IMG/VR virus record: IMGVR_UViG_2778261499_000007
Strand: one strand, 5' to 3'
DNA length: 14,225 nt
From: a virus
Lineage: Duplodnaviria > Heunggongvirae > Uroviricota > Caudoviricetes
Shown here: piece after piece, positions 1,479 to 14,225 of the stretch
How the letters are laid out: each line of letters opens with the position of its first letter
Numbering within the stretch: the first letter of the stretch is position 1
Notes under the pieces: generated by a model
What the model saw: the letters and a program-made list of their open reading frames with translations, nothing else
Database searches by the model: none
What the model was told of the DNA's origin: nothing
Translations under genes and position numbers: made by a program

Positions 1479-1487
1479 TGTGGATAA
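1479..1487. promoter_or_regulatory. Perfect DnaA-box 9-mer (TGTGGATAA, reverse complement TTATCCACA)
   Basis: Exact match to the TTATCCACA consensus; a second perfect copy lies at 3256-3264. Significance uncertain for an isolated 9-mer. Confidence 0.25.
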
Positions 1488-2925: not shown

Positions 2926-3255
2926 TTGATCACCTGCGATTTAAATTAACTCCCCTCAAAGAGTTCCGGTATAACCTCTCAAACCGCGACAGGCTCGGGC
3001 CGAAAAGTTATGCCGGAAATCTAAAGGGGGATTGATATAAGGAGAGGGAGATAGCCCCGCACCGTAGCCAAGCGGGGGCTATTCCACATGGGGAAACCGA
3101 CAACAGTCGGATGATAGTTCACAGTATGGGTTACGGTTACTAGAGAGCACTATCACGAAAGGCACTCCCCCGAATCAGTTCAGGCTGCGGTCACATCAGC
3201 GGGGAAATACCTTTCGGGATAGCTACCCACACAGAAAACCCGCAAAAGAAAACTG

Positions 3256-3264
3256 TGTGGATAA
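3256..3264. promoter_or_regulatory. Perfect DnaA-box 9-mer (TGTGGATAA)
   Basis: Exact consensus match within the 870-bp ORF-free leader upstream of the capsid operon. Confidence 0.25.
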
Positions 3265-3408
3265 CTAGCCCAATAGGAGAATTAATCGACCACTCAACGA
3301 TGATCAGGGTAGTGTTATTTATAGGGCGGCACCGCTACCTGGTCGCCTTTACTTTGGAGGAAAATATGGCAAATCAAGATCTTCTCAAATGATATTGATT
3401 CCATACTA

Positions 3409-3428
3409 TACTGTATATTATATCAGTA
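3409..3428. promoter_or_regulatory. LexA/SOS-box-like site (taCTGTatattataTCAGta)
   Basis: CTGT-N8-TCAG with an AT-only spacer; matches the E. coli SOS-box consensus CTGT-(AT)4-ACAG except the first base of the right half-site. Confidence 0.35.
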
Positions 3429-3775
3429 TTTACTCACATTGTCAACACCTTGATTATATAAATTCTAATAATTAGCGTAGTAACGGTATTTTCAGACCTC
3501 TATCAATCCCATCAATACGTCACCCCCACCCTTTAGATGCATACATCCGACCTACTTTGTAGGCTTGGCGTACTGCCAAGGTCGCAGCTATGCGACTCCT
3601 ATCTATCACCACTTTATAAAGCTTGATAGATATCTTTTGATCAATATCAATGTTTTCCGGGTATTTACCCGGCTATAGTTCGAATCAAGGAAGGGGAGCA
3701 TTGATAGAGACACCCAAAGGGGTGACTGAAAGTCACCTGGCATAGCCAGTGAAAGCACCCAACCGAACAAACAAA

Positions 3776-3925: not shown

Positions 3926-4006
3926 ATGGGCAAAGGAGGCAAAGCATTTTTAATAGGTCTGGCTATCCTGGATGTTCTACTAATCATGATTAAGCGGAGT
4001 TTATGA
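3926..4006 (+). CDS. Small hydrophobic peptide, 26 aa (MGKGGKAFLIGLAILDVLLIMIKRSL)
   Basis: Translated by hand. GGAGG at 3915-3919 with 6-nt spacing; ATG begins 1 nt after the preceding TGA; single predicted transmembrane helix. Confidence 0.25.
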   Translation: MGKGGKAFLIGLAILDVLLIMIKRSL

Positions 4007-4025
4007 ACAGCATTGAGAGGAGTTT

Positions 4026-4286
4026 ATGACGGGGGCTAAAGATATCAGGAGACTGAGGGAAGAGCTGATAGCTGAAATTAAAGCTAAGGCAAAGCAAATG
4101 GAGATAGCCGCACAAATGGATGTAGCGGAACAGATGTACAAGATGGTTGAGGAGGGAACGCCACGACAGGTTATCGCTAAAACCTTCGGTGTGGGGATCG
4201 CCACCGTGCACAGAAGGCTGAAAGCCTATGCCGACTACCACAATATCGAGAGAAAGGAGGATGGGAGATTTAAGAAGAATAAATAG
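4026..4286 (+). CDS. Small HTH DNA-binding protein (coiled-coil N-terminus, C-terminal HTH GTPRQVIAKTFGVGIATVHRRLK), 86 aa
   Basis: ORF track; GAGGAG RBS; clear helix-turn-helix pattern; the overlapping minus-strand ORFs are low-complexity shadows. Confidence 0.55.
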   Translation: MTGAKDIRRLREELIAEIKAKAKQMEIAAQMDVAEQMYKMVEEGTPRQVIAKTFGVGIATVHRRLKAYADYHNIERKEDGRFKKNK

Positions 4287-4296
4287 TAGGAACAGG

Positions 4297-4336
4297 CCCG
4301 AAGGGCTTAGCTTTAGCTAAGGTCCTATCAGGACTC
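4297..4336. repeat. Right arm of the 40-bp inverted repeat (partner 1437-1476); hairpin-forming
   Basis: CCCGAAGGGCTTAGCTTTAGCTAAGGTCCT... is the reverse complement of 1437-1476 with about 4 mismatches; lies between the HTH gene stop and the next gene. Confidence 0.7.
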
Positions 4337-4392: not shown

Positions 4393-5103
4393 ATGTTTAA
4401 AGGTCTTGTTGTTACGCTATTGGCTTGCATTGTATTTGGTCCATGGGTGTTAGTAATTGCTTTACCTATATTGCTGATCATGAGCTTAGGGAATGATATT
4501 AAAAAGCTGCATGCACAATATAAGGAGCATCCTGGAGCAGTCATAACAAGTCTGGTTATAGTCGCGGGGCTTATTGGCTGGGTCTACTTCTCTCTTCCCA
4601 CAGGAAATACAACTGCAAATGTAGAAGAGGCGAACGCACAGCATGAAGAAGTGGTTAACGTCGCCGACCTTACATGGGAGGACAGGGTAAAAGCATATAA
4701 ATATATTTATGGTGTGCTAGATTGCGATCTCTCTAAAGATATAGGATGCACAGATAAATACCAGATTCACGCCTGGCTGTGGAATCATGCAGAAAAAGGT
4801 GCTTGCAACCAGATTAAAGTGGCGGTTAACAGTGGGGCACCTACTGGGAAAAATAAAGATGTTCTGACGGTATGGTGCAAGGATGTAAAAGGCAATGATC
4901 GTTGGCTACAGATGCGCCACATGGACGGTGTAAGCATAGAAACTACACGAACGGCTCGATGGTATAACGGTGAACTCGTTCACGAAGCATGGCAGAATAA
5001 CGCCTGGATCACTGAGGGAACACTCCTGAATGTTGATATGGAAGCATTGAAGATGCTTAATGAGATGTACGGTGAAGCCGTAGAAACCTCTCCGATGAAA
5101 TAA
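4393..5103 (+). CDS. Membrane protein, 236 aa: N-terminal transmembrane helices and a Cys-containing C-terminal domain; function unknown
   Basis: ORF track; two long hydrophobic segments in the first 70 aa; several Cys in the C-terminal domain; followed by a strong terminator. Confidence 0.55.
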   Translation: MFKGLVVTLLACIVFGPWVLVIALPILLIMSLGNDIKKLHAQYKEHPGAVITSLVIVAGLIGWVYFSLPTGNTTANVEEANAQHEEVVNVADLTWEDRVKAYKYIYGVLDCDLSKDIGCTDKYQIHAWLWNHAEKGACNQIKVAVNSGAPTGKNKDVLTVWCKDVKGNDRWLQMRHMDGVSIETTRTARWYNGELVHEAWQNNAWITEGTLLNVDMEALKMLNEMYGEAVETSPMK

Positions 5104-5113
5104 CCACACCTAC

Positions 5114-5143
5114 CAGGGGCCATCACGGCCCCTTTTTATTTAT
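5114..5143 (+). terminator. Rho-independent terminator (AGGGGCC-atcac-GGCCCCT followed by TTTTATTTAT)
   Basis: Perfect 7-bp GC-rich stem, 5-nt loop and T-rich tail starting 11 nt after the stop of the 4393..5103 gene. Confidence 0.7.
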
Positions 5144-5200
5144 CCCCTATTTACACTCCTTTCAGTCCTGATCATCACTCCCTACCCCCTGATCAATTAA

Positions 5201-5250
5201 CCCCTATTTAAGGGGTATTTAATGGGTATTTAATGCCTATTTATTGATTT
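5201..5250. repeat. Phased tandem repeats of TATTTAA at about 11-bp period (4 to 5 copies), plus a second CCCCTATTTA copy at 5144-5153
   Basis: cccctatttaa / ggggtatttaat / gggtatttaat / gcctatttatt / gatttaat; periodicity of about one helical turn. Confidence 0.6.
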
Positions 5251-6486
5251 AATCCGTTTTATGCCACAACCGCCCGGTTGACAGAGTAAGAGAGAGGGTG
5301 TAACCCTTTTTCGTAATACTAATAAAATCAATAGCTTAGCTCAATTGGCCTTTTCTCTGTTTTTGTCAAATTTAACATACCCTAAAAAACTGCAAAATCT
5401 GGCTGCAAGATTATCTGCAGCTGGATTTCTTACACCTCAATTTGTGGTATCACCCTGACTAGTTTGTGCATAAAATGAACAGTTTTTAACATTTCCTCTT
5501 CACCTGGTAACCACACAAAAAGCTAAAAACGAGGCACAGATAATCTTAGAGGCCTGTTTTCTTGTTATCACTCTGGAAACGTCGTAGAAGTGATTTTGAT
5601 GAAAGATGACCTACCCTATTACACCCCCATTTTTTGTTATCACAATTGCATCCTGTGCGGTGTATGGCTGTGTGCTGAAAGCGGTCTTGGGTGTGGGTGT
5701 CAGAAATATCCATTAGCGGTATTAATACCCGTCAGATGTTCGTCTGAGGTGCCAGGCAGGCGCTCCCCCACCTCCCTTTTTTCTTCTAACAATTCTCAAA
5801 TATCACACCACTGCCGACCACGTTACTACTCTGTTAATTCTTAAGCTTTGCTGTATGTTGTGCACATTATTTATTCAGGTGCGTGTACGTAAATTCTGGG
5901 CCTCCTTATCATGATTTTTAAATCAGATTTTGTAGTTCGGTTTCTTAGTGTAGATAAGATCTATTATGTTAAATGCAATTTTCCCAACCCTTCAAATCAA
6001 TGACTTACATGTAAGCATGCACTAACACCCCACACAGCACATTAGACGTATAGATGGCTATATCCCACATTTTTGATTGTTTTGTAGTCATTCCCCTGAT
6101 CATTTAACCAGTATAGTTTGTTCTTTGCAGACCACAAAATCGGAATTTACATCTGATTAACATAATCTGTTAGCATGATCACTATTACCCACACAACAAT
6201 AACCCCATGCAAGACTCTTCAGGCAATTTATCGGCGTGTTGGTGTGAACAGTCTTTCATGTTCTTTATGTTTTCATTGTCCTGTGTGAGGGAAGGATGGA
6301 CTGCCCCAGGGGCCACACTTATGATGCCCGGTCAACATAGCTATTGATAAAATCAACGGGTGTTGATCTGCATATTTCCCACACATGAGAGGAAATCAGA
6401 GCAAAGAGAGAGGAGAGAGGTTTGCTAGTCAAAATAGGTCAATTGACGGCTAATACAGAGTAAAAAATCAGATGCAATCACTCCCC

Positions 6487-6669
6487 ACCTGTTGGGATTT
6501 CCCGCACCTGTATAAGAATACAGTCATACTTTCCCGTTATACGGTCATACACATGATGGAATAACCTGTTGGAATTTCCTACAGGTTTAACCATACACAG
6601 GAGCTAACCTGTTGGAATTTCCTACTACTACCTGTCGGTATTTCCCACAGGTACCTGTTGGAATTTCCC
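6487..6669. repeat. Iteron array (5 copies of ACCTGTTGGAATTTCCY at 6487, 6564, 6607, 6630, 6653), candidate replication origin
   Basis: Near-identical 17-mers; the last three are spaced 23 bp apart; ACCTGT/ACAGGT inverted half-sites; followed by an AT-rich tract (6670-6710) and, 1.3 kb downstream, Rep-like genes. Confidence 0.7.
6508..6523. promoter_or_regulatory. Canonical SOS-box pattern CTGT-N8-ACAG (CTGTATAAGAATACAG) inside the iteron region
   Basis: Exact CTGT and ACAG half-sites with an 8-nt A/T-rich spacer. May partly reflect the iteron ACCTGT/ACAGGT half-sites. Confidence 0.35.
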
Positions 6670-6797
6670 ACACTAATAGATAAAGAGAATAGATCAATAA
6701 AAAGAACTCCCCCTATAATCCCCCAACAAGGGGGGATGGGGAGGGATCAGAGAGTGGGGAAGGTTTTCTAAGGGAAAAGCTTAACCCACAAATGAAA

Positions 6798-6826
6798 GCC
6801 TAAAGAGCATTAGCGACTCTTTAGGC
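6798..6826. other. Perfect 10-bp stem hairpin (GCCTAAAGAG-N9-CTCTTTAGGC), part of a highly structured ORF-free stretch (about 6790-7100)
   Basis: Exact inverted repeat. Nearby are GGTGAC-N21-GTCACC (6840-6872), TTAAGCC-tct-GGCTTAA, GTCCGGA-N20-TCCGGAC and tandem 17-mers at 6826-6843 and 6873-6889. Confidence 0.5.
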
Positions 6827-7231
6827 AATCTGTGTGTGGGGTGACAATGTATTCCATACATGACACGTCACCCAATTGTGTGTGGGGTGCTTACAGCACT
6901 TAAGCCTCTGGCTTAACCCTTCGGGCCTCTGTGTGGGAAGCGTAGTGCGATAGCACGTAGCTTTATAATGTGGAGTCCGGATAAGAGACTTCTGTTTCCA
7001 ATCCGGACCGTTTAAGCGAGGGATTCCGCTCGCCCGTGTATGCACACACGTAATAGGACGCTCAGAAATCGATTTTAAGGCCCAAAACGGGGCCTACAGC
7101 AACCTAAACCATACTCCATAGTGCAATTGCATTGCCTGATGCTTAAATCGCGTTGTAGGGCATCTCATGAGGTTTGAGTTTAACACCCTCCAAAGTTTTA
7201 ACAAAAAGTGCTCTCCCTCCATTGTGGGCCA

Positions 7232-7261
7232 TTGACAATCTTATTGCATAAATGCTATAAG
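7232..7261 (+). promoter_or_regulatory. Sigma70-like promoter (TTGACA-N18-TATAAG)
   Basis: Consensus -35 hexamer with a 5-of-6 match -10 at 18-nt spacing. One of five (A/T)TTGACAAT-type repeats in 7230-7560. Confidence 0.4.
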
Positions 7262-7551
7262 TGATTCTGGTTTTGACACGGTAGGGGCCATTAATAATGT
7301 TTACCCCTTTGCTGTGGACTTGCTTGCACCTATAGCACACCTAAATGATAATAATTCTCATTGACAATTGGTTGACAATATGATAAGATTATAAATAGGG
7401 GGAGAAACAGATCCGGAGGTCAATGTGGAAATTACTGATGCAATAGCGATCATCAACCTGGCTGTACTGTGGTGCGGTGTTGCCTACATAGCCGGAGTAA
7501 CTGCAATCGACAATCTCGAAGAAAAAATGATAGATAAATACAAAAAGATTG

Positions 7552-7580
7552 TTGACAATTTGACGAATGTCTGATAAAAT
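7552..7580 (+). promoter_or_regulatory. Sigma70-like promoter (TTGACA-N17-TAAAAT) about 125 nt upstream of the 7706 gene
   Basis: Consensus -35 and near-consensus -10 at optimal spacing, oriented toward the replication gene block. Confidence 0.45.
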
Positions 7581-7705
7581 ATAAAGCATAGGGTAATTCT
7601 CATCATAGTGAATTTCCTTAAACAAAAATGCGGGGGCTTGTCTTAAGTTCCCGTTTCTTTTTAACCGTATATCGCACAGGCGGTGAGCTGACAGGAGATT
7701 GAATC

Positions 7706-7915: not shown

Positions 7916-7939
7916 TAAATAATCTTGGAGGATCATATT

Positions 7940-8326
7940 ATGGCAAATAACGATGAAAATTTTACTCCCTTTTTTAAACGTTTCATCAAATACACTTTTA
8001 AAAATCCGATTGCAAAAACTGCAACCAATAAAGAAAGATTTCACTTAAATGTGTTGGAGGTAACAATTTATGGTGAAATGGTAAGTTATTCTTTTAAGGA
8101 GGGTGAAGAAATAATTATCTCAGAGCTCTCGACGCAGACATTAGCAGACGATTATGATGTTACAGAGAAAACAGTAAGGTCGGCTATCAAAACATTAGAG
8201 GCTGCAGGTCTGATAAACGTTAAACGAGAACAGGGCAAATCGAATATCTACGAATTGCTAATTACCCCTGATCAGCTTGGCAAGATGTGCGATGAGCAGG
8301 GTATTAGAGAATATTTTATATATTAA
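7940..8326 (+). CDS. Rep-like winged-helix protein, short paralog (about 128 aa); replication-initiator-type HTH
   Basis: Segment ISELSTQTLADDYDVTEKTVRSAIKTLEAAGLINVKREQGKSNIYELL fits the winged-helix pattern of phage/plasmid replication initiators. GGAGG RBS before the ATG at 7940 (track start 7925 is a TTG). Paralogous to the next gene. Confidence 0.5.
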   Translation: MANNDENFTPFFKRFIKYTFKNPIAKTATNKERFHLNVLEVTIYGEMVSYSFKEGEEIIISELSTQTLADDYDVTEKTVRSAIKTLEAAGLINVKREQGKSNIYELLITPDQLGKMCDEQGIREYFIY

Positions 8327-8337
8327 TGGGGGGAACT

Positions 8338-9258
8338 ATGGCAGGAAATAAACTGGGGGCACCTTTTACCCCCTCTTTCGATTTCTTTATTCAGTATGAT
8401 TTTGATAAACCAGTAGCAACAACAATTTCTAATAAAAAGACTGGAACAGTTAAAGAGCGCTTCTATTTAACAGACTTTGAAATGTTGATTTATGGAAAAA
8501 TGGTGGGATTTCATTTTAACGGTGAGGGAATTTATATTTCAGAGCAAAAACTGGCAACTCAACTCAGAAAGGATCGCGGGAAAATAGTAAGCGCTATTAA
8601 ATCTCTGGAAAATGCCGGGCTTATTTCTAAAGATAGCCGGAAAGGCATGTCTAATAATTACAAATTGCTGAAAACCCCTGATCAATTGTTGGATATGTGC
8701 ATTGAGAAGGGCGTAAATATTCCAGAAGGCATCTTAGAGACTTTCGGAAAGACTGCCGCTAAAGTAGAACAGCCTCAGGAAGCCCCAAAACAAGCCACAC
8801 AGCAAGCTAAAAAGGCTAAAGTAGTGCAATTGCCTACCCAAGACACTAAAGCGCCTCAAATTAACGCTGTTAGTGACAAGCCACGCCGGGGCCGTCCTGT
8901 GAAAGATGTCACCGATGGAGGCTGGATCGTCCTGGGTGAGAGTGAGGCTAAAGGCATAATGCGATCACTGTGGGAAAGCAAATACAAAGATTTAAACAAA
9001 CGTCGCCCGATCCTTTTGTCAAAGATTCAGGAGGATTTTTACACCGCAGAAGAGGTAAGCCAACATAAAGGGAAAAGAGAGGGTGAAATCTGGAAACCGG
9101 AAGAATACTGGCATTTAACCAGACCTGTGTTTATTTTTGCAAATAAGCTTATTGGGATGGGATTTGAAATATTGTTGGATAAAACCTGCGGAGATTATCC
9201 CGAAATATTGTGGAGAAATGTTAGAAAAAATAAAAAAGGCATTTTAGAGTTTAAATAA
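8338..9258 (+). CDS. Rep-like replication initiator, long paralog (about 306 aa) with a C-terminal extension
   Basis: N-terminal 120 aa parallels the preceding gene (MA.N...FTP.F...; ...SAIKSLENAGLISKDSRKGMSNNYKLL). The previous stop overlaps an upstream ATG at 8326 (TAATG); 8338 is preceded by a G-rich SD. Iterons lie upstream. Confidence 0.5.
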   Translation: MAGNKLGAPFTPSFDFFIQYDFDKPVATTISNKKTGTVKERFYLTDFEMLIYGKMVGFHFNGEGIYISEQKLATQLRKDRGKIVSAIKSLENAGLISKDSRKGMSNNYKLLKTPDQLLDMCIEKGVNIPEGILETFGKTAAKVEQPQEAPKQATQQAKKAKVVQLPTQDTKAPQINAVSDKPRRGRPVKDVTDGGWIVLGESEAKGIMRSLWESKYKDLNKRRPILLSKIQEDFYTAEEVSQHKGKREGEIWKPEEYWHLTRPVFIFANKLIGMGFEILLDKTCGDYPEILWRNVRKNKKGILEFK

Positions 9259-11190: not shown

Positions 11191-13293
11191 ATGGCAATGA
11201 AGGAAGTAGCCAAGCTAACAAACGTTATTTACTGGGATTCTGATAAATCCAGCTGGCGAAAAGAAGTTAAACGGCTTGAGGATTATAAAAAATCCTGGAA
11301 GAAAGCTACCGACGATATAGCTAAAGCGGATTTTAAATCTAATCAGGCTGTGCTCAGAACACAAAGAACACGCGCTAAGGTGGAAGAGCAGATCGCCAGA
11401 GCACAGAAGAAACAACGTGCTCAGGCTGTCAGCCGTCTGACCGGGGGCAATAATCCGGAGCTCTCCTCTATGCGCAAGTTCTATCAGCAGCAAGCCAGAG
11501 AGGCCGCCAGACAACAAAAACTGTTAGATCGTAGTGTTGGAGATGTTCAGCACAGAAAAGCACGTGTAGGGGCCAACAGTGCACGAATCAGCAGCATGTT
11601 TGATGGCTCCCTGGTTGCTCAGTTCCAATCCAGAATTCAGAGAGTTAATGCTGATTATGCTAAAGGGGCTATTAACCTGCAGACCTATAATCAGAAAATG
11701 GCCCGACTCAGATCTGAAATGAAGATGGCAACAGCAGAGGCCGGAAAATTTCAGAGCAGACTAGACAAAGCTGCGGTAGCAGGATCAAAGCTGCATGACA
11801 ACCTGGGCAAACTCAACTCCACACTAGGCAAGATAGCTATTGGCCTTACTGCCGCTGGCTGGGGTGTTCAGCGTGCTGTTAGTGGTGCTATGGGTAGCCT
11901 TGCAGATCGCAACAGTGCGTATTTCAGCTTAATGGCCCAGAACAAGGATGATAAAGAAAAAACTGATCAGCAGATGGCCTACGTCAAAAGAATCTCTTAT
12001 GACTACGGGATGGATCAGCGTGAGACTGAAGGCGGCTTTATGCGCTTTGCTGCAGCCACACCAAGCATAAAAGAGAAAGATAAGCAGGATCTCTTTGAGG
12101 CTATGGCGATTAAAGGCCGATCAGTGGGTGCTACCGCAGACCAACAGAACAGGGCTATCGTTGCACTAGGACAAATATATAGCAAGGGCGGTCGAGTGTA
12201 TGCGGAAGAGCTTAAGGGCCAACTTTCTGAAGCCCTGGCAGGTTCTCAGGTAGATTTCACTAAGGCCGCTATCGATGCCGGAGTCATCAAGAAAGAGGAA
12301 GAATTTAATAAAGCCCTTGAAGATGGCAAGATCACCATGGACAAGCTTCTTCCTTCTCTGGTGAAAATCTGGGGTGCTGCAAAAGAAACTAAAGCTTTTG
12401 CTGAATCCATGAAACAGCCAGAAGTAGCAATGCAGCGCATGAAAAACAGCTTTAACGAGCTGGCGATTCAGTTTATGGGTGTTGTGGATCCTGCAGATGG
12501 CGTTATTAGCTTATCTGAATCTCTAATCTCCATCTTCGAAGACCTCACCACTGATATGGACGGCAGCGGGAGCGCGGCAAAACAGTTCGGTGAGGCAGTC
12601 GGGGCTGCCATGCGGGAGATCATGTATTGGGTAGGCTTCGCTAAGGGATATATCGAGATTAAGGCTAAAGAGTTCGGCATGACCAGTGAGGAAGTCGGAG
12701 GATGGATCGGCAAGCTGGTTGTTGCAATCGCAGGTCTGAAGATCATCGGCACACTTCTTTCTCCGTTTACCGGACTGATTTCACTTGTCACACAGCTGAT
12801 AGCCTTGTTAGGTAAAATCCCTGGTATGAGCAAGCTTCTGGCTTCTGCCTCAGGTGGAACGGCAACAGGAGCAGCGGTCATCAGTGCAGGATCTAACGCT
12901 GAAAGAAGTTTCATTGATGGCAAGACGCAGGAAATGAGTAAGGAGAACTCAAAACAGGGTGCTTTGTTTGAGCTGGGAAGATTTGTTAGCAATGCTGGCG
13001 CACTATTCACACCTGGCGGTGATACTGGTCCTTTGTTCGATCAGGTCAGAGGCTGGTTTAATAAAGGGCCAACATTGACAGTAGACACTGGCATCAGACC
13101 AACACCAACGGGTGGCATAGCTATCCAGAATGGTGGATATCAACCAGTCCAAGTAAATGTAGCCCCACAAGGTGAGATTTCCGGCAAATGGGAGATAACC
13201 ATCGATGAGGGGGGAATTGCCAGGGTAATTCAGAAGGAAGTCAGCGATCAGTTGGATTGGAAAGCCACGCAGGAATCTAACCAGCTTTTCTAA
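11191..13293 (+). CDS. Tail tape measure protein-like, 700 aa
   Basis: Long coiled-coil N-terminal region; segment ADQQNRAIVALGQIYSKGGRVYAEELKGQLSEALAGSQVDF matches the conserved tape-measure domain pattern (SKG...EEL..QL.E.L.G); long hydrophobic helices at about residues 505-560; Gly-rich C-terminus. Confidence 0.7.
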   Translation: MAMKEVAKLTNVIYWDSDKSSWRKEVKRLEDYKKSWKKATDDIAKADFKSNQAVLRTQRTRAKVEEQIARAQKKQRAQAVSRLTGGNNPELSSMRKFYQQQAREAARQQKLLDRSVGDVQHRKARVGANSARISSMFDGSLVAQFQSRIQRVNADYAKGAINLQTYNQKMARLRSEMKMATAEAGKFQSRLDKAAVAGSKLHDNLGKLNSTLGKIAIGLTAAGWGVQRAVSGAMGSLADRNSAYFSLMAQNKDDKEKTDQQMAYVKRISYDYGMDQRETEGGFMRFAAATPSIKEKDKQDLFEAMAIKGRSVGATADQQNRAIVALGQIYSKGGRVYAEELKGQLSEALAGSQVDFTKAAIDAGVIKKEEEFNKALEDGKITMDKLLPSLVKIWGAAKETKAFAESMKQPEVAMQRMKNSFNELAIQFMGVVDPADGVISLSESLISIFEDLTTDMDGSGSAAKQFGEAVGAAMREIMYWVGFAKGYIEIKAKEFGMTSEEVGGWIGKLVVAIAGLKIIGTLLSPFTGLISLVTQLIALLGKIPGMSKLLASASGGTATGAAVISAGSNAERSFIDGKTQEMSKENSKQGALFELGRFVSNAGALFTPGGDTGPLFDQVRGWFNKGPTLTVDTGIRPTPTGGIAIQNGGYQPVQVNVAPQGEISGKWEITIDEGGIARVIQKEVSDQLDWKATQESNQLF

Positions 13294-13845: not shown

Positions 13846-14225
13846 TCAGCCTCTACCTACATTTGACCAATACTTGATTGCACCGATCAAATCATCATAG
13901 TGGCGCATTGCATCATTGAAGCCTTTATAGCTTGCCCATTGTGGTGAAACCTTGTTATTGCTGAATTGCCCACTAATCAGGATAGTCTCCAAAATGTCGG
14001 CATATCGCTTACCAATACGCTTTCTGACGGCCTCAGAGCTCCCACCCTTTACGATTGCATTAATCAGGGCTTTTGTGTGTCTCAGGCTCTCATAGAGCAT
14101 TGCAGCGTGGGCAGATTCCATAAAGGAGCGCTTAGGCAGATCACCCCACCCCTCAGAGTGGATAGCTGCCAGTGTGGCGTAATTCAGGCCGCTATAGTGC
14201 TTTCCGTCATCCCAGCCAACCGCTA
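13846..14225 (-). CDS. Hypothetical protein, C-terminal part (...MESAHAAMLYESLRHTKALINAIVKGGSSEAVRKRIGKRYADILETILISGQFSNNKVSPQWASYKGFNDAMRHYDDLIGAIKYWSNVGRG); same gene as 1-156 if circular (about 152 aa total)
   Basis: The frame is open from the window end down to the TGA at 13846-13848; the upstream portion is supplied in frame by 156->1 through the 77-bp junction. Confidence 0.5.
   Translation of the reverse strand, partial: AVGWDDGKHYSGLNYATLAAIHSEGWGDLPKRSFMESAHAAMLYESLRHTKALINAIVKGGSSEAVRKRIGKRYADILETILISGQFSNNKVSPQWASYKGFNDAMRHYDDLIGAIKYWSNVGRG
14149..14225. repeat. Terminal direct repeat, right copy (identical to 1-77)
   Basis: Same 77-mer as the window start; consistent with a circular contig written with overlap, or a direct terminal repeat. 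Confidence 0.9.

Follow-up and report, generated by a model that had tools for sequence, protein, structure and literature searches.

Predicted LexA operators at the capsid promoter and the iteron origin of a satellite-like plasmid element of Escherichia coli

The window, meaning the whole 14,225-nt stretch of DNA that was analysed, carries at its end (14149-14225) an exact repeat of bases 1-77, which indicates that the contig is a circle of 14,148 bp whose ends overlap in the assembly. The window is matched at 91-95% identity by nine small E. coli plasmids, eight of 13.2-13.7 kb and one a 39.6-kb record with three matching places; these come from several continents and were carried by humans, cattle, chickens, and a feral pig. 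One carrier strain is E275a, with plasmid pE275a_13. No near match was found among deposited phage genomes when the phage collection was searched by megablast. The capsid operon lies on the minus strand (153-2925) and begins with a 111-aa gene (2590-2925), its other members being the genes for an HK97-type major capsid protein (1544-2584), an 86-aa protein (1151-1411), and a Dit-like tail-tube initiator (153-1010). The element also encodes a small resolvase-type helix-turn-helix (HTH) protein (4026-4286), a 236-aa protein (4393-5103), a 700-aa tape measure protein (11191-13293), and a tail-completion-like protein, in addition to two winged-helix replication-initiator-like proteins of 133 and 310 aa on the plus strand (7925-8326 and 8326-9258). 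The capsid and tail-initiator genes were assigned through PHROG and Pfam matches, the RefSeq annotation of the relatives, and tblastn to rV5-like phages, while the initiator-like genes match PHROG replication-initiator families and Pfam HTH_36. PHROG and Pfam searches gave no match to a terminase or portal among the element's genes, and no tRNA genes were found in the window. Approximately 2.6 kb (5100-7700) contains no convincing gene and holds an array of five iterons.

The tail-tube initiator is 51% identical to its homologues in the virulent rV5-like Vequintavirinae (tblastn, E = 6e-57), and the capsid and tape measure proteins share ~25% identity with proteins of the same phages. The capsid family is confined to E. 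coli, its members being at least 94% identical except for one cluster at 82%; a single cluster of sequences for this protein comprises 441 members. Metagenome contigs contributed five loci encoding capsid-protein relatives; none was found in a one-genome-per-species collection or in viral contigs. The carrier looks like an undescribed plasmid-resident satellite, kin to virulent rV5-like myoviruses, that would provide its own capsid, tape measure, and tail initiator and presumably depends on a helper. A literature search of incomplete coverage found no published description of this element family or of a satellite of rV5-like phages.

Two further features of the carrier were observed. A 45-nt inverted repeat (89% complementary), with arms at 1437-1481 and 4292-4336, encloses a 2.8-kb block containing the capsid gene, the 111-aa gene, the leader and promoter of the operon, and the resolvase-type HTH gene. 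None of the nine annotated relatives has this block in inverted orientation, and the two arms may act as shared terminators or as a site of recombination. In addition, one relative (L017; NTNY01000053.1, a 30,105-bp contig) has an insertion at about 13450-21041 in which Pfam hits identify APH-family aminoglycoside phosphotransferase genes, a TetR-family regulator gene, and a DDE transposase gene. The phosphotransferase genes are possibly strA/strB, and the TetR/transposase part may tentatively be read as a tetracycline-resistance module; if these Pfam calls hold, the insertion is antibiotic-resistance cargo on a satellite-like plasmid.

Two sites resembling SOS boxes, to which the host repressor LexA would bind, had been pointed out in an earlier note on this DNA, one upstream of the capsid leader and one inside the origin. 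Site 1 occupies 3409-3428 (TACTGTATATTATATCAGTA) and has the core CTGT-N8-TCAG at 3411-3426, in which CTG and CAG are both intact and only position 15 departs from the half-sites, having T instead of A. Site 2 has an exact CTGT-N8-ACAG core at 6508-6523 (CTGTATAAGAATACAG) within the 20-mer 6506-6525 (ACCTGTATAAGAATACAGTC). The sequences are as the earlier note gave them, including the single deviation of site 1, and the positions that it assigned to them are borne out by the promoter scan and the iteron coordinates described below. Each is a 16-bp palindrome with both CTG and CAG preserved. A first LexA weight matrix, built from 29 E. coli boxes (training sites spanning 12.4-24.7 bits), ranks sites 1 and 2 first and second in the window with 17.4 and 16.2 bits, followed by a third match at 13.6 bits and a fourth at 7.8 bits.

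The final numbers were supplied by a heterology index (HI) matrix, which replaced this first matrix and gives the same ranking. All CTG-N10-CAG sites of E. coli K-12 are listed with their HI values in Table S1 of PMC12527982, and regression on 123 of these sites recovered the matrix with an rmse of 0.001, such that it returns the listed values for recA (4.31), sulA (4.65), and uvrA (6.98). By this measure site 1 has an HI of 8.89 and site 2 an HI of 9.40, and their neighbours in the K-12 table are uvrD (8.80), ruvAB (9.19), and recN (9.38). The LexA-binding class extends to an HI of about 12.6-13.6, the last member of the low-HI cluster being at 13.60, and this cluster correctly classified all 24 experimentally tested K-12 sites (PMC12527982). 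Both sites fall within it. In first-order Markov simulations of the window (n = 4000), sites with HI ≤ 9.4 numbered 0.010 on average and never two, and two sites likewise occurred in none of 3000 simulations of the non-coding composition alone. The 4.64-Mb genome of E. coli K-12 contains only 21 sites at or below this value, or 0.064 per 14 kb, and most of them are real SOS operators. The comparison of matrix scores with background that the earlier note had proposed thus ranks both sites with the validated operators and well clear of background. By score, both sites are good E. coli LexA operators. They resemble the chromosomal SOS boxes of uvrA/ssb, uvrD, ruvAB, and dinI in HI range and in the CTGT-N8-ACAG palindrome; the T at position 15 of site 1 also occurs in the genuine uvrA/ssb box (TACTGTATATTCATTCAGGT), and the ACCTGT with which site 2 starts is common to the dinI box. 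Because such sites with intact CTG and CAG bind LexA in E. coli, it is very likely that both predicted sites would do so in vitro.

Site 1 lies on the promoter of the capsid operon. Read on the minus strand, the region (GGTGTTGACAATGTGAGTAAATACTGATATAATATACAGTATAG) contains TTGACA (3445-3440), a 17-nt spacer, and TGnTATAAT, with the extended -10 TG at 3425-3424 and TATAAT at 3422-3417, and this promoter (3417-3445) is the only 12/12 match to the sigma-70 consensus that a promoter scan found in the window. The box overlaps the -10 hexamer, the extended -10 TG, and the predicted start point: its CTG half-site falls on the TG, its A+T-rich centre is the -10 hexamer and the discriminator, and its promoter-distal CAG half-site is at the predicted start point. 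Lying thus across the -10 and +1 of a predicted promoter, site 1 is in an operator position. Occlusion of RNA polymerase by a LexA dimer at -10/+1 is the arrangement of many chromosomal SOS promoters, and many SOS operators overlap these elements as site 1 does.

The promoter is followed by a 485-nt 5′ leader (2926-3410, minus strand) that separates it from the first gene of the operon. The leader is predicted to be strongly structured, with a minimum free energy of -174 kcal/mol (z = -4.96) that none of 100 shuffled sequences equalled, and Rfam searches at the gathering threshold and at E ≤ 1 gave no credible family match for it. About five haplotypes of its first ~40 nt are found, and the G that completes the box is present in some of them and absent from others; the promoter upstream and the remainder of the leader downstream of this stretch are conserved. 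This variable start might determine specificity, either towards a helper factor or in long-range pairing close to the ribosome-binding site.

The region of site 1 was compared among 29 close relatives and one divergent relative, drawn from complete plasmids, metagenome contigs, and assemblies found via the capsid protein. The box is intact in 16 of 30 sequences (the window and 15 relatives, in which the next base is G), whereas 13 of the 30 lack this G, reading CAT instead of CAG, and have no box. The capsid promoter itself is invariant up to ...TATAATATACA in 27 of 29 close relatives; the other two (L024 and L027) carry TACAAT for TATAAT and keep the box at an HI of 11.29. L015, the most divergent relative (capsid protein 82% identical), retains TTGACAAT...TGATAAAAT and neither half-site. 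Since CAT is found in 13 of 30 sequences and L015 is without half-sites, LexA control at the capsid promoter is dispensable in relatives, and with the box intact in just 16 of the 30, SOS control over late expression would not be a constant trait of the family. Site 1 is, on these comparisons, an optional layer of predicted control.

This distribution also allows site 1 to be read as a by-product of promoter architecture, in which CTG is provided by the extended -10 TG, the centre by TATAAT and the discriminator, and a chance G completes CAG, while the real control is exerted through the structured leader and/or a helper-phage factor and LexA binding is incidental. Indeed, the conserved promoter accounts for 17 of the 20 bases and one extra G completes the box; it is at this G that the close relatives begin to diverge, the boxless sequences (CAT or L015) are many, the TTGACAAT...CTGATAAAAT build recurs in the paralogous promoters at 7361 and 7552, neither of which has a second half-site, and the strong structure of the leader offers another means of control. 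LexA should nevertheless bind whatever the origin of the sequence, given that CTG and CAG are intact and the HI of 8.89 lies in the class that proved correct for 24 of 24 validated K-12 sites (PMC12527982), and binding over -10/+1 must interfere with transcription. The box has moreover been kept in three of five or six leader haplotypes and alongside the TACAAT variant of the promoter. We therefore regard the by-product account as unlikely, and operator function of site 1 as the preferred reading.

The -35 region of the capsid promoter belongs to a repeated motif, as TTGACAAT occurs five times in the window against 0.85 expected, at 3438-3445 on the minus strand and at 7232, 7361, 7372, and 7552 on the plus strand. 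It marks a family of predicted paralogous strong promoters. The promoter at 7552-7580, which precedes a 69-aa gene and the rep genes, is 79% alike to the capsid promoter over 42 nt. It was considered as a third operator and rejected, as its sequence (CTGATAAAATATAAAG) has AAG in place of CAG in all relatives; in L009 and L012 it reads CTG-N13-CAG, a spacing that is wrong for an operator.

Site 2 is found within the replication origin. Five 21-nt iterons span 6485-6671 on the plus strand, and the box lies between the first of them and the other four. The 3′ end of iteron 1 (6485-6505; CCACCTGTTGGGATTTCCCGC, direct-repeat family D2) touches the box, and iterons 2-5 (6562-6671), of the ACCTGTTGGAATTTCC type, are spaced at 43, 23, and 23 nt and followed by an A+T-rich stretch (6672-6710). 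In a comparison of ten elements, iteron type and the Rep N-terminal domain vary together: Rep N-termini that are 91-97% identical are found in the window, L001, and L002, all of which carry ACCTGTTGGAATTTCC iterons, and other Rep groups carry ACCTGTCAAAATATTTTAC, ACTGAAGATTTCTCAC, or GGTAAAAATTACC repeats. A direct-repeat array, co-variation with Rep, and winged-helix Rep genes are the features of an iteron-type theta origin, and by these features the array is judged to be a real iteron origin. No DnaA box stands beside the iterons; matches to TTWTNCACA in the window occur only at 1479, 3256, and 5465.

Several other observations concern the origin and its surroundings. Two of the DnaA boxes are perfect (TTATCCACA), one in the capsid leader (3256-3264, minus strand) and one just downstream of the capsid gene (1479-1487, minus strand), and the number of DnaA boxes in the window is not above chance. 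The Rep proteins of the window and L001-L009 are domain mosaics in which the N-terminal alleles track the iteron type and the C-terminal alleles, which form two classes at ~27% mutual identity, assort independently. The 133-aa gene is a paralogue of the Rep N-terminus, as shown by a 68-nt direct repeat (8234-8301 and 8644-8711). Finally, the heptamer CCCACAC is present in 13 copies between 3226 and 6937 against 1.0 expected, a number reached in none of 200 shuffles. The copies (e.g., 6029, 6188, 6378, 6667, 6834, 6880, and 6931) are nearly all non-coding and cluster around the origin and leader, and the heptamer is a candidate protein-binding motif.

The origin region is highly mosaic among the relatives, and the cassette containing site 2 is nevertheless present in 24 of 28. 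It consists of an iteron-like repeat ending in TTTC(A/C)C, the box directly abutting it, and then usually TCATAC. Five alleles of the box occur: A, that of the window (ACCTGTATAAGAATACAGTC, HI 9.40), B (ACCTGTAAATCCATACAGCA, HI 8.19), C (ACCTGTGTGTTTATACAGTC, HI 7.87), D (TACTGTGTGCTTATACAGTC, HI 7.67), and E (TACTGTGTATTTAAACAGTC, HI 6.25). None of the eight half-site positions (CTGT and ACAG) varies among them, although six of the eight were fixed by the search, the alleles having first been found with the pattern CTG-N10-CAG; positions 6 (T) and 15 (A) are free of this bias and are likewise invariant. By contrast, 11 of the 12 other positions vary (seven of eight central and all four flanking). 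Two further observations are free of the search bias: wherever the cassette flanks are present the box is intact, and in the four elements without a box (L009, L010, L017, and L021) the whole cassette is absent rather than the half-sites mutated. Invariant half-sites amid a variable remainder are the pattern expected if a LexA dimer were the selective agent.

The position of site 2 invites a second explanation, namely that it is bound by a protein of the element, a dimeric Rep or a small winged-helix protein, as an inverted partial iteron of the kind known from F and pPS10. Three of the alleles do begin with ACCTGT, the hexamer with which the iterons open as well, the box always directly follows an iteron-like repeat, and the scan of the window found no promoter beneath it, which is unusual for a LexA site. 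The right arm, however, is ATACAG(T/C) and not the inverted iteron ACAGGT, and alleles D and E have the LexA-consensus TACTGT in place of the iteron-like ACCTGT. Allele B, moreover, accompanies unrelated Reps, those of L003, L005, and L007, whose N-terminal domains are 21-58% identical, so that the iterons co-vary with Rep and the box does not. The rep genes are also 1.4 kb away, and the site is not at their promoter. A Rep-dimer operator in particular was rejected, given the sequence of the arms, the two alleles with TACTGT, and a box that does not co-vary with Rep, and we consider binding by an element protein in general to be quite improbable. A promoter was likewise rejected as a general explanation of site 2; only allele C contains a passable one (TTCACA-18-CATACT), which is absent from A and B.

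That both sites are chance matches in A+T-rich non-coding DNA without a protein partner is very improbable: short palindromes are common and site 1 is polymorphic, but 0.010 sites are expected per window, two sites arose in none of the 4000 whole-window and 3000 non-coding simulations, and all five alleles of site 2 keep its half-sites.

Weaker LexA-like boxes occur elsewhere in the family. In the window, a borderline third box at 6094-6113 (CCCTGATCATTTAACCAGTA) has an HI of 14.15, just outside the binding class, and its counterparts in several relatives have HI values of 11.8-12.8; the conservation of this box is uninformative on function because its flanks are equally conserved. Besides sites 1 and 2, boxes with HI values of 10.8-12.8 are polymorphic at three positions in the family. 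Among them, some relatives have AGCTGAGTTTATGAACAGCA (HI 12.6) 14 nt ahead of the HTH gene (at 3884 in L002 and 4149 in L005), where the window (3993-4012) has CGG, and TCCTGAATGGTTAACCAGTA (HI 10.75) is inside the tape-measure gene at 12672 in L005, with an identical 20-mer in L011, L017, and L018. Of the near-complete relatives, only L010 is without any LexA-like box. Thus, the family is enriched for predicted LexA motifs, with single sites gained and lost.

Taken with the alternatives above, we place a probability of roughly 0.6 on the reading that both sites are operators for host E. coli LexA and control the capsid operon and the origin. A LexA dimer on site 1 would exclude RNA polymerase and keep the operon for the capsid and tail initiator silent, and during the SOS response RecA-stimulated self-cleavage of LexA would free the capsid promoter. 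LexA on site 2 would hinder initiator binding or origin assembly at iteron 1, such that loss of LexA would favour replication from the iteron origin. Because no promoter shared by the alleles is predicted under site 2, the usual repressor mechanism is inapplicable there, and its action would most likely be steric interference with the initiator at the adjoining iteron. In sum, the analysis establishes the quality of the two sequences, their excess over chance, their placement relative to the promoter and iterons, and their patterns of conservation, and from these we infer that LexA would occupy them in the cell, repress the capsid promoter, and influence replication. Repression of the capsid promoter by LexA in the haplotype of the window is fairly probable, and an effect of site 2 on replication, for which conservation and position are the evidence, is proposed more tentatively.

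These sites differ from chromosomal SOS boxes in being located on a mobile, plasmid-like element and, in the case of site 2, inside an iteron origin rather than at a promoter. In its origin the element resembles F, pPS10, and R6K, which likewise have arrays of 19-23-bp direct repeats by winged-helix initiator genes, co-variation of initiator and iterons, and a palindrome beside the iterons. The palindrome of F, pPS10, and R6K is an inverted partial iteron located at the rep promoter and bound by Rep dimers. Here, in contrast, the palindrome matches LexA, ignores Rep specificity, and is far from the rep genes. GIL01, a phage of Bacillus thuringiensis, replicates as a linear plasmid, and like it the present element is an extrachromosomal, phage-type element that has no classical CI repressor and is predicted to use host LexA. 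In GIL01, host LexA at the phage's own lytic promoter serves as the switch between lysogeny and lysis and requires the small co-factor gp7, which stabilizes LexA (PMC4551915). GIL01 is, however, a complete phage, whereas this element has no detected terminase or portal gene and lacks most tail genes.

Another of the closest functional parallels is operon I of the staphylococcal pathogenicity islands (SaPIs), which contains capsid-remodelling and small-terminase genes and is repressed directly by host LexA (PMC3152322, citing Ubeda et al., 2007). The present element is similarly of the satellite type, having capsid, tape-measure, and tail-initiator genes with no terminase or portal match, and has its predicted LexA box at the capsid-operon promoter. 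The SaPIs are, however, integrated islands of a Gram-positive host with the Gram-positive LexA motif, in contrast to the Gram-negative plasmid described here, and a major capsid protein and tape measure of their own, both of which this element encodes, are absent from them. Other differences are that the capsid-promoter box is present in only about half of this element's family and that a second box, conserved more widely, lies in the origin instead of at a promoter. Furthermore, SaPI helpers are temperate, SOS-inducible phages, whereas the closest structural homologues here are virulent rV5-like Vequintavirinae; because the structural genes are kin to these strictly virulent phages, SaPI-style co-induction with a temperate helper may not apply. 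The analogy with temperate phages and satellites that the earlier note had drawn may for the same reason not fit this element.

Direct use of host LexA by mobile elements is already known from colicin plasmids, SaPI operon I, GIL01, and antirepressor-controlled prophages, and a LexA box on the capsid promoter of a satellite is thus no surprise. The natural CAG/CAT polymorphism at this promoter provides a ready isogenic contrast for the contribution of LexA. Given a carrier that is apparently kin to strictly virulent phages, an SOS cue is less obviously useful and needs another rationale, and the identity of the carrier may be a more interesting lead than the boxes themselves. One speculative picture, which we hold to be doubtful, is that of a family of plasmid-resident satellites, 13-14-kb circles, in which host LexA would act as a direct switch of the origin and, in about half of the lineages, of the capsid promoter too, with LexA cleavage sensing the DNA damage of phage infection rather than prophage induction. 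Less ordinary than the capsid-promoter box is a LexA box fused to an iteron in a plasmid origin and kept there despite the reshuffling of the origin modules. Such a box suggests SOS control of replication initiation that would be exerted at the level of the DNA and not through a promoter.
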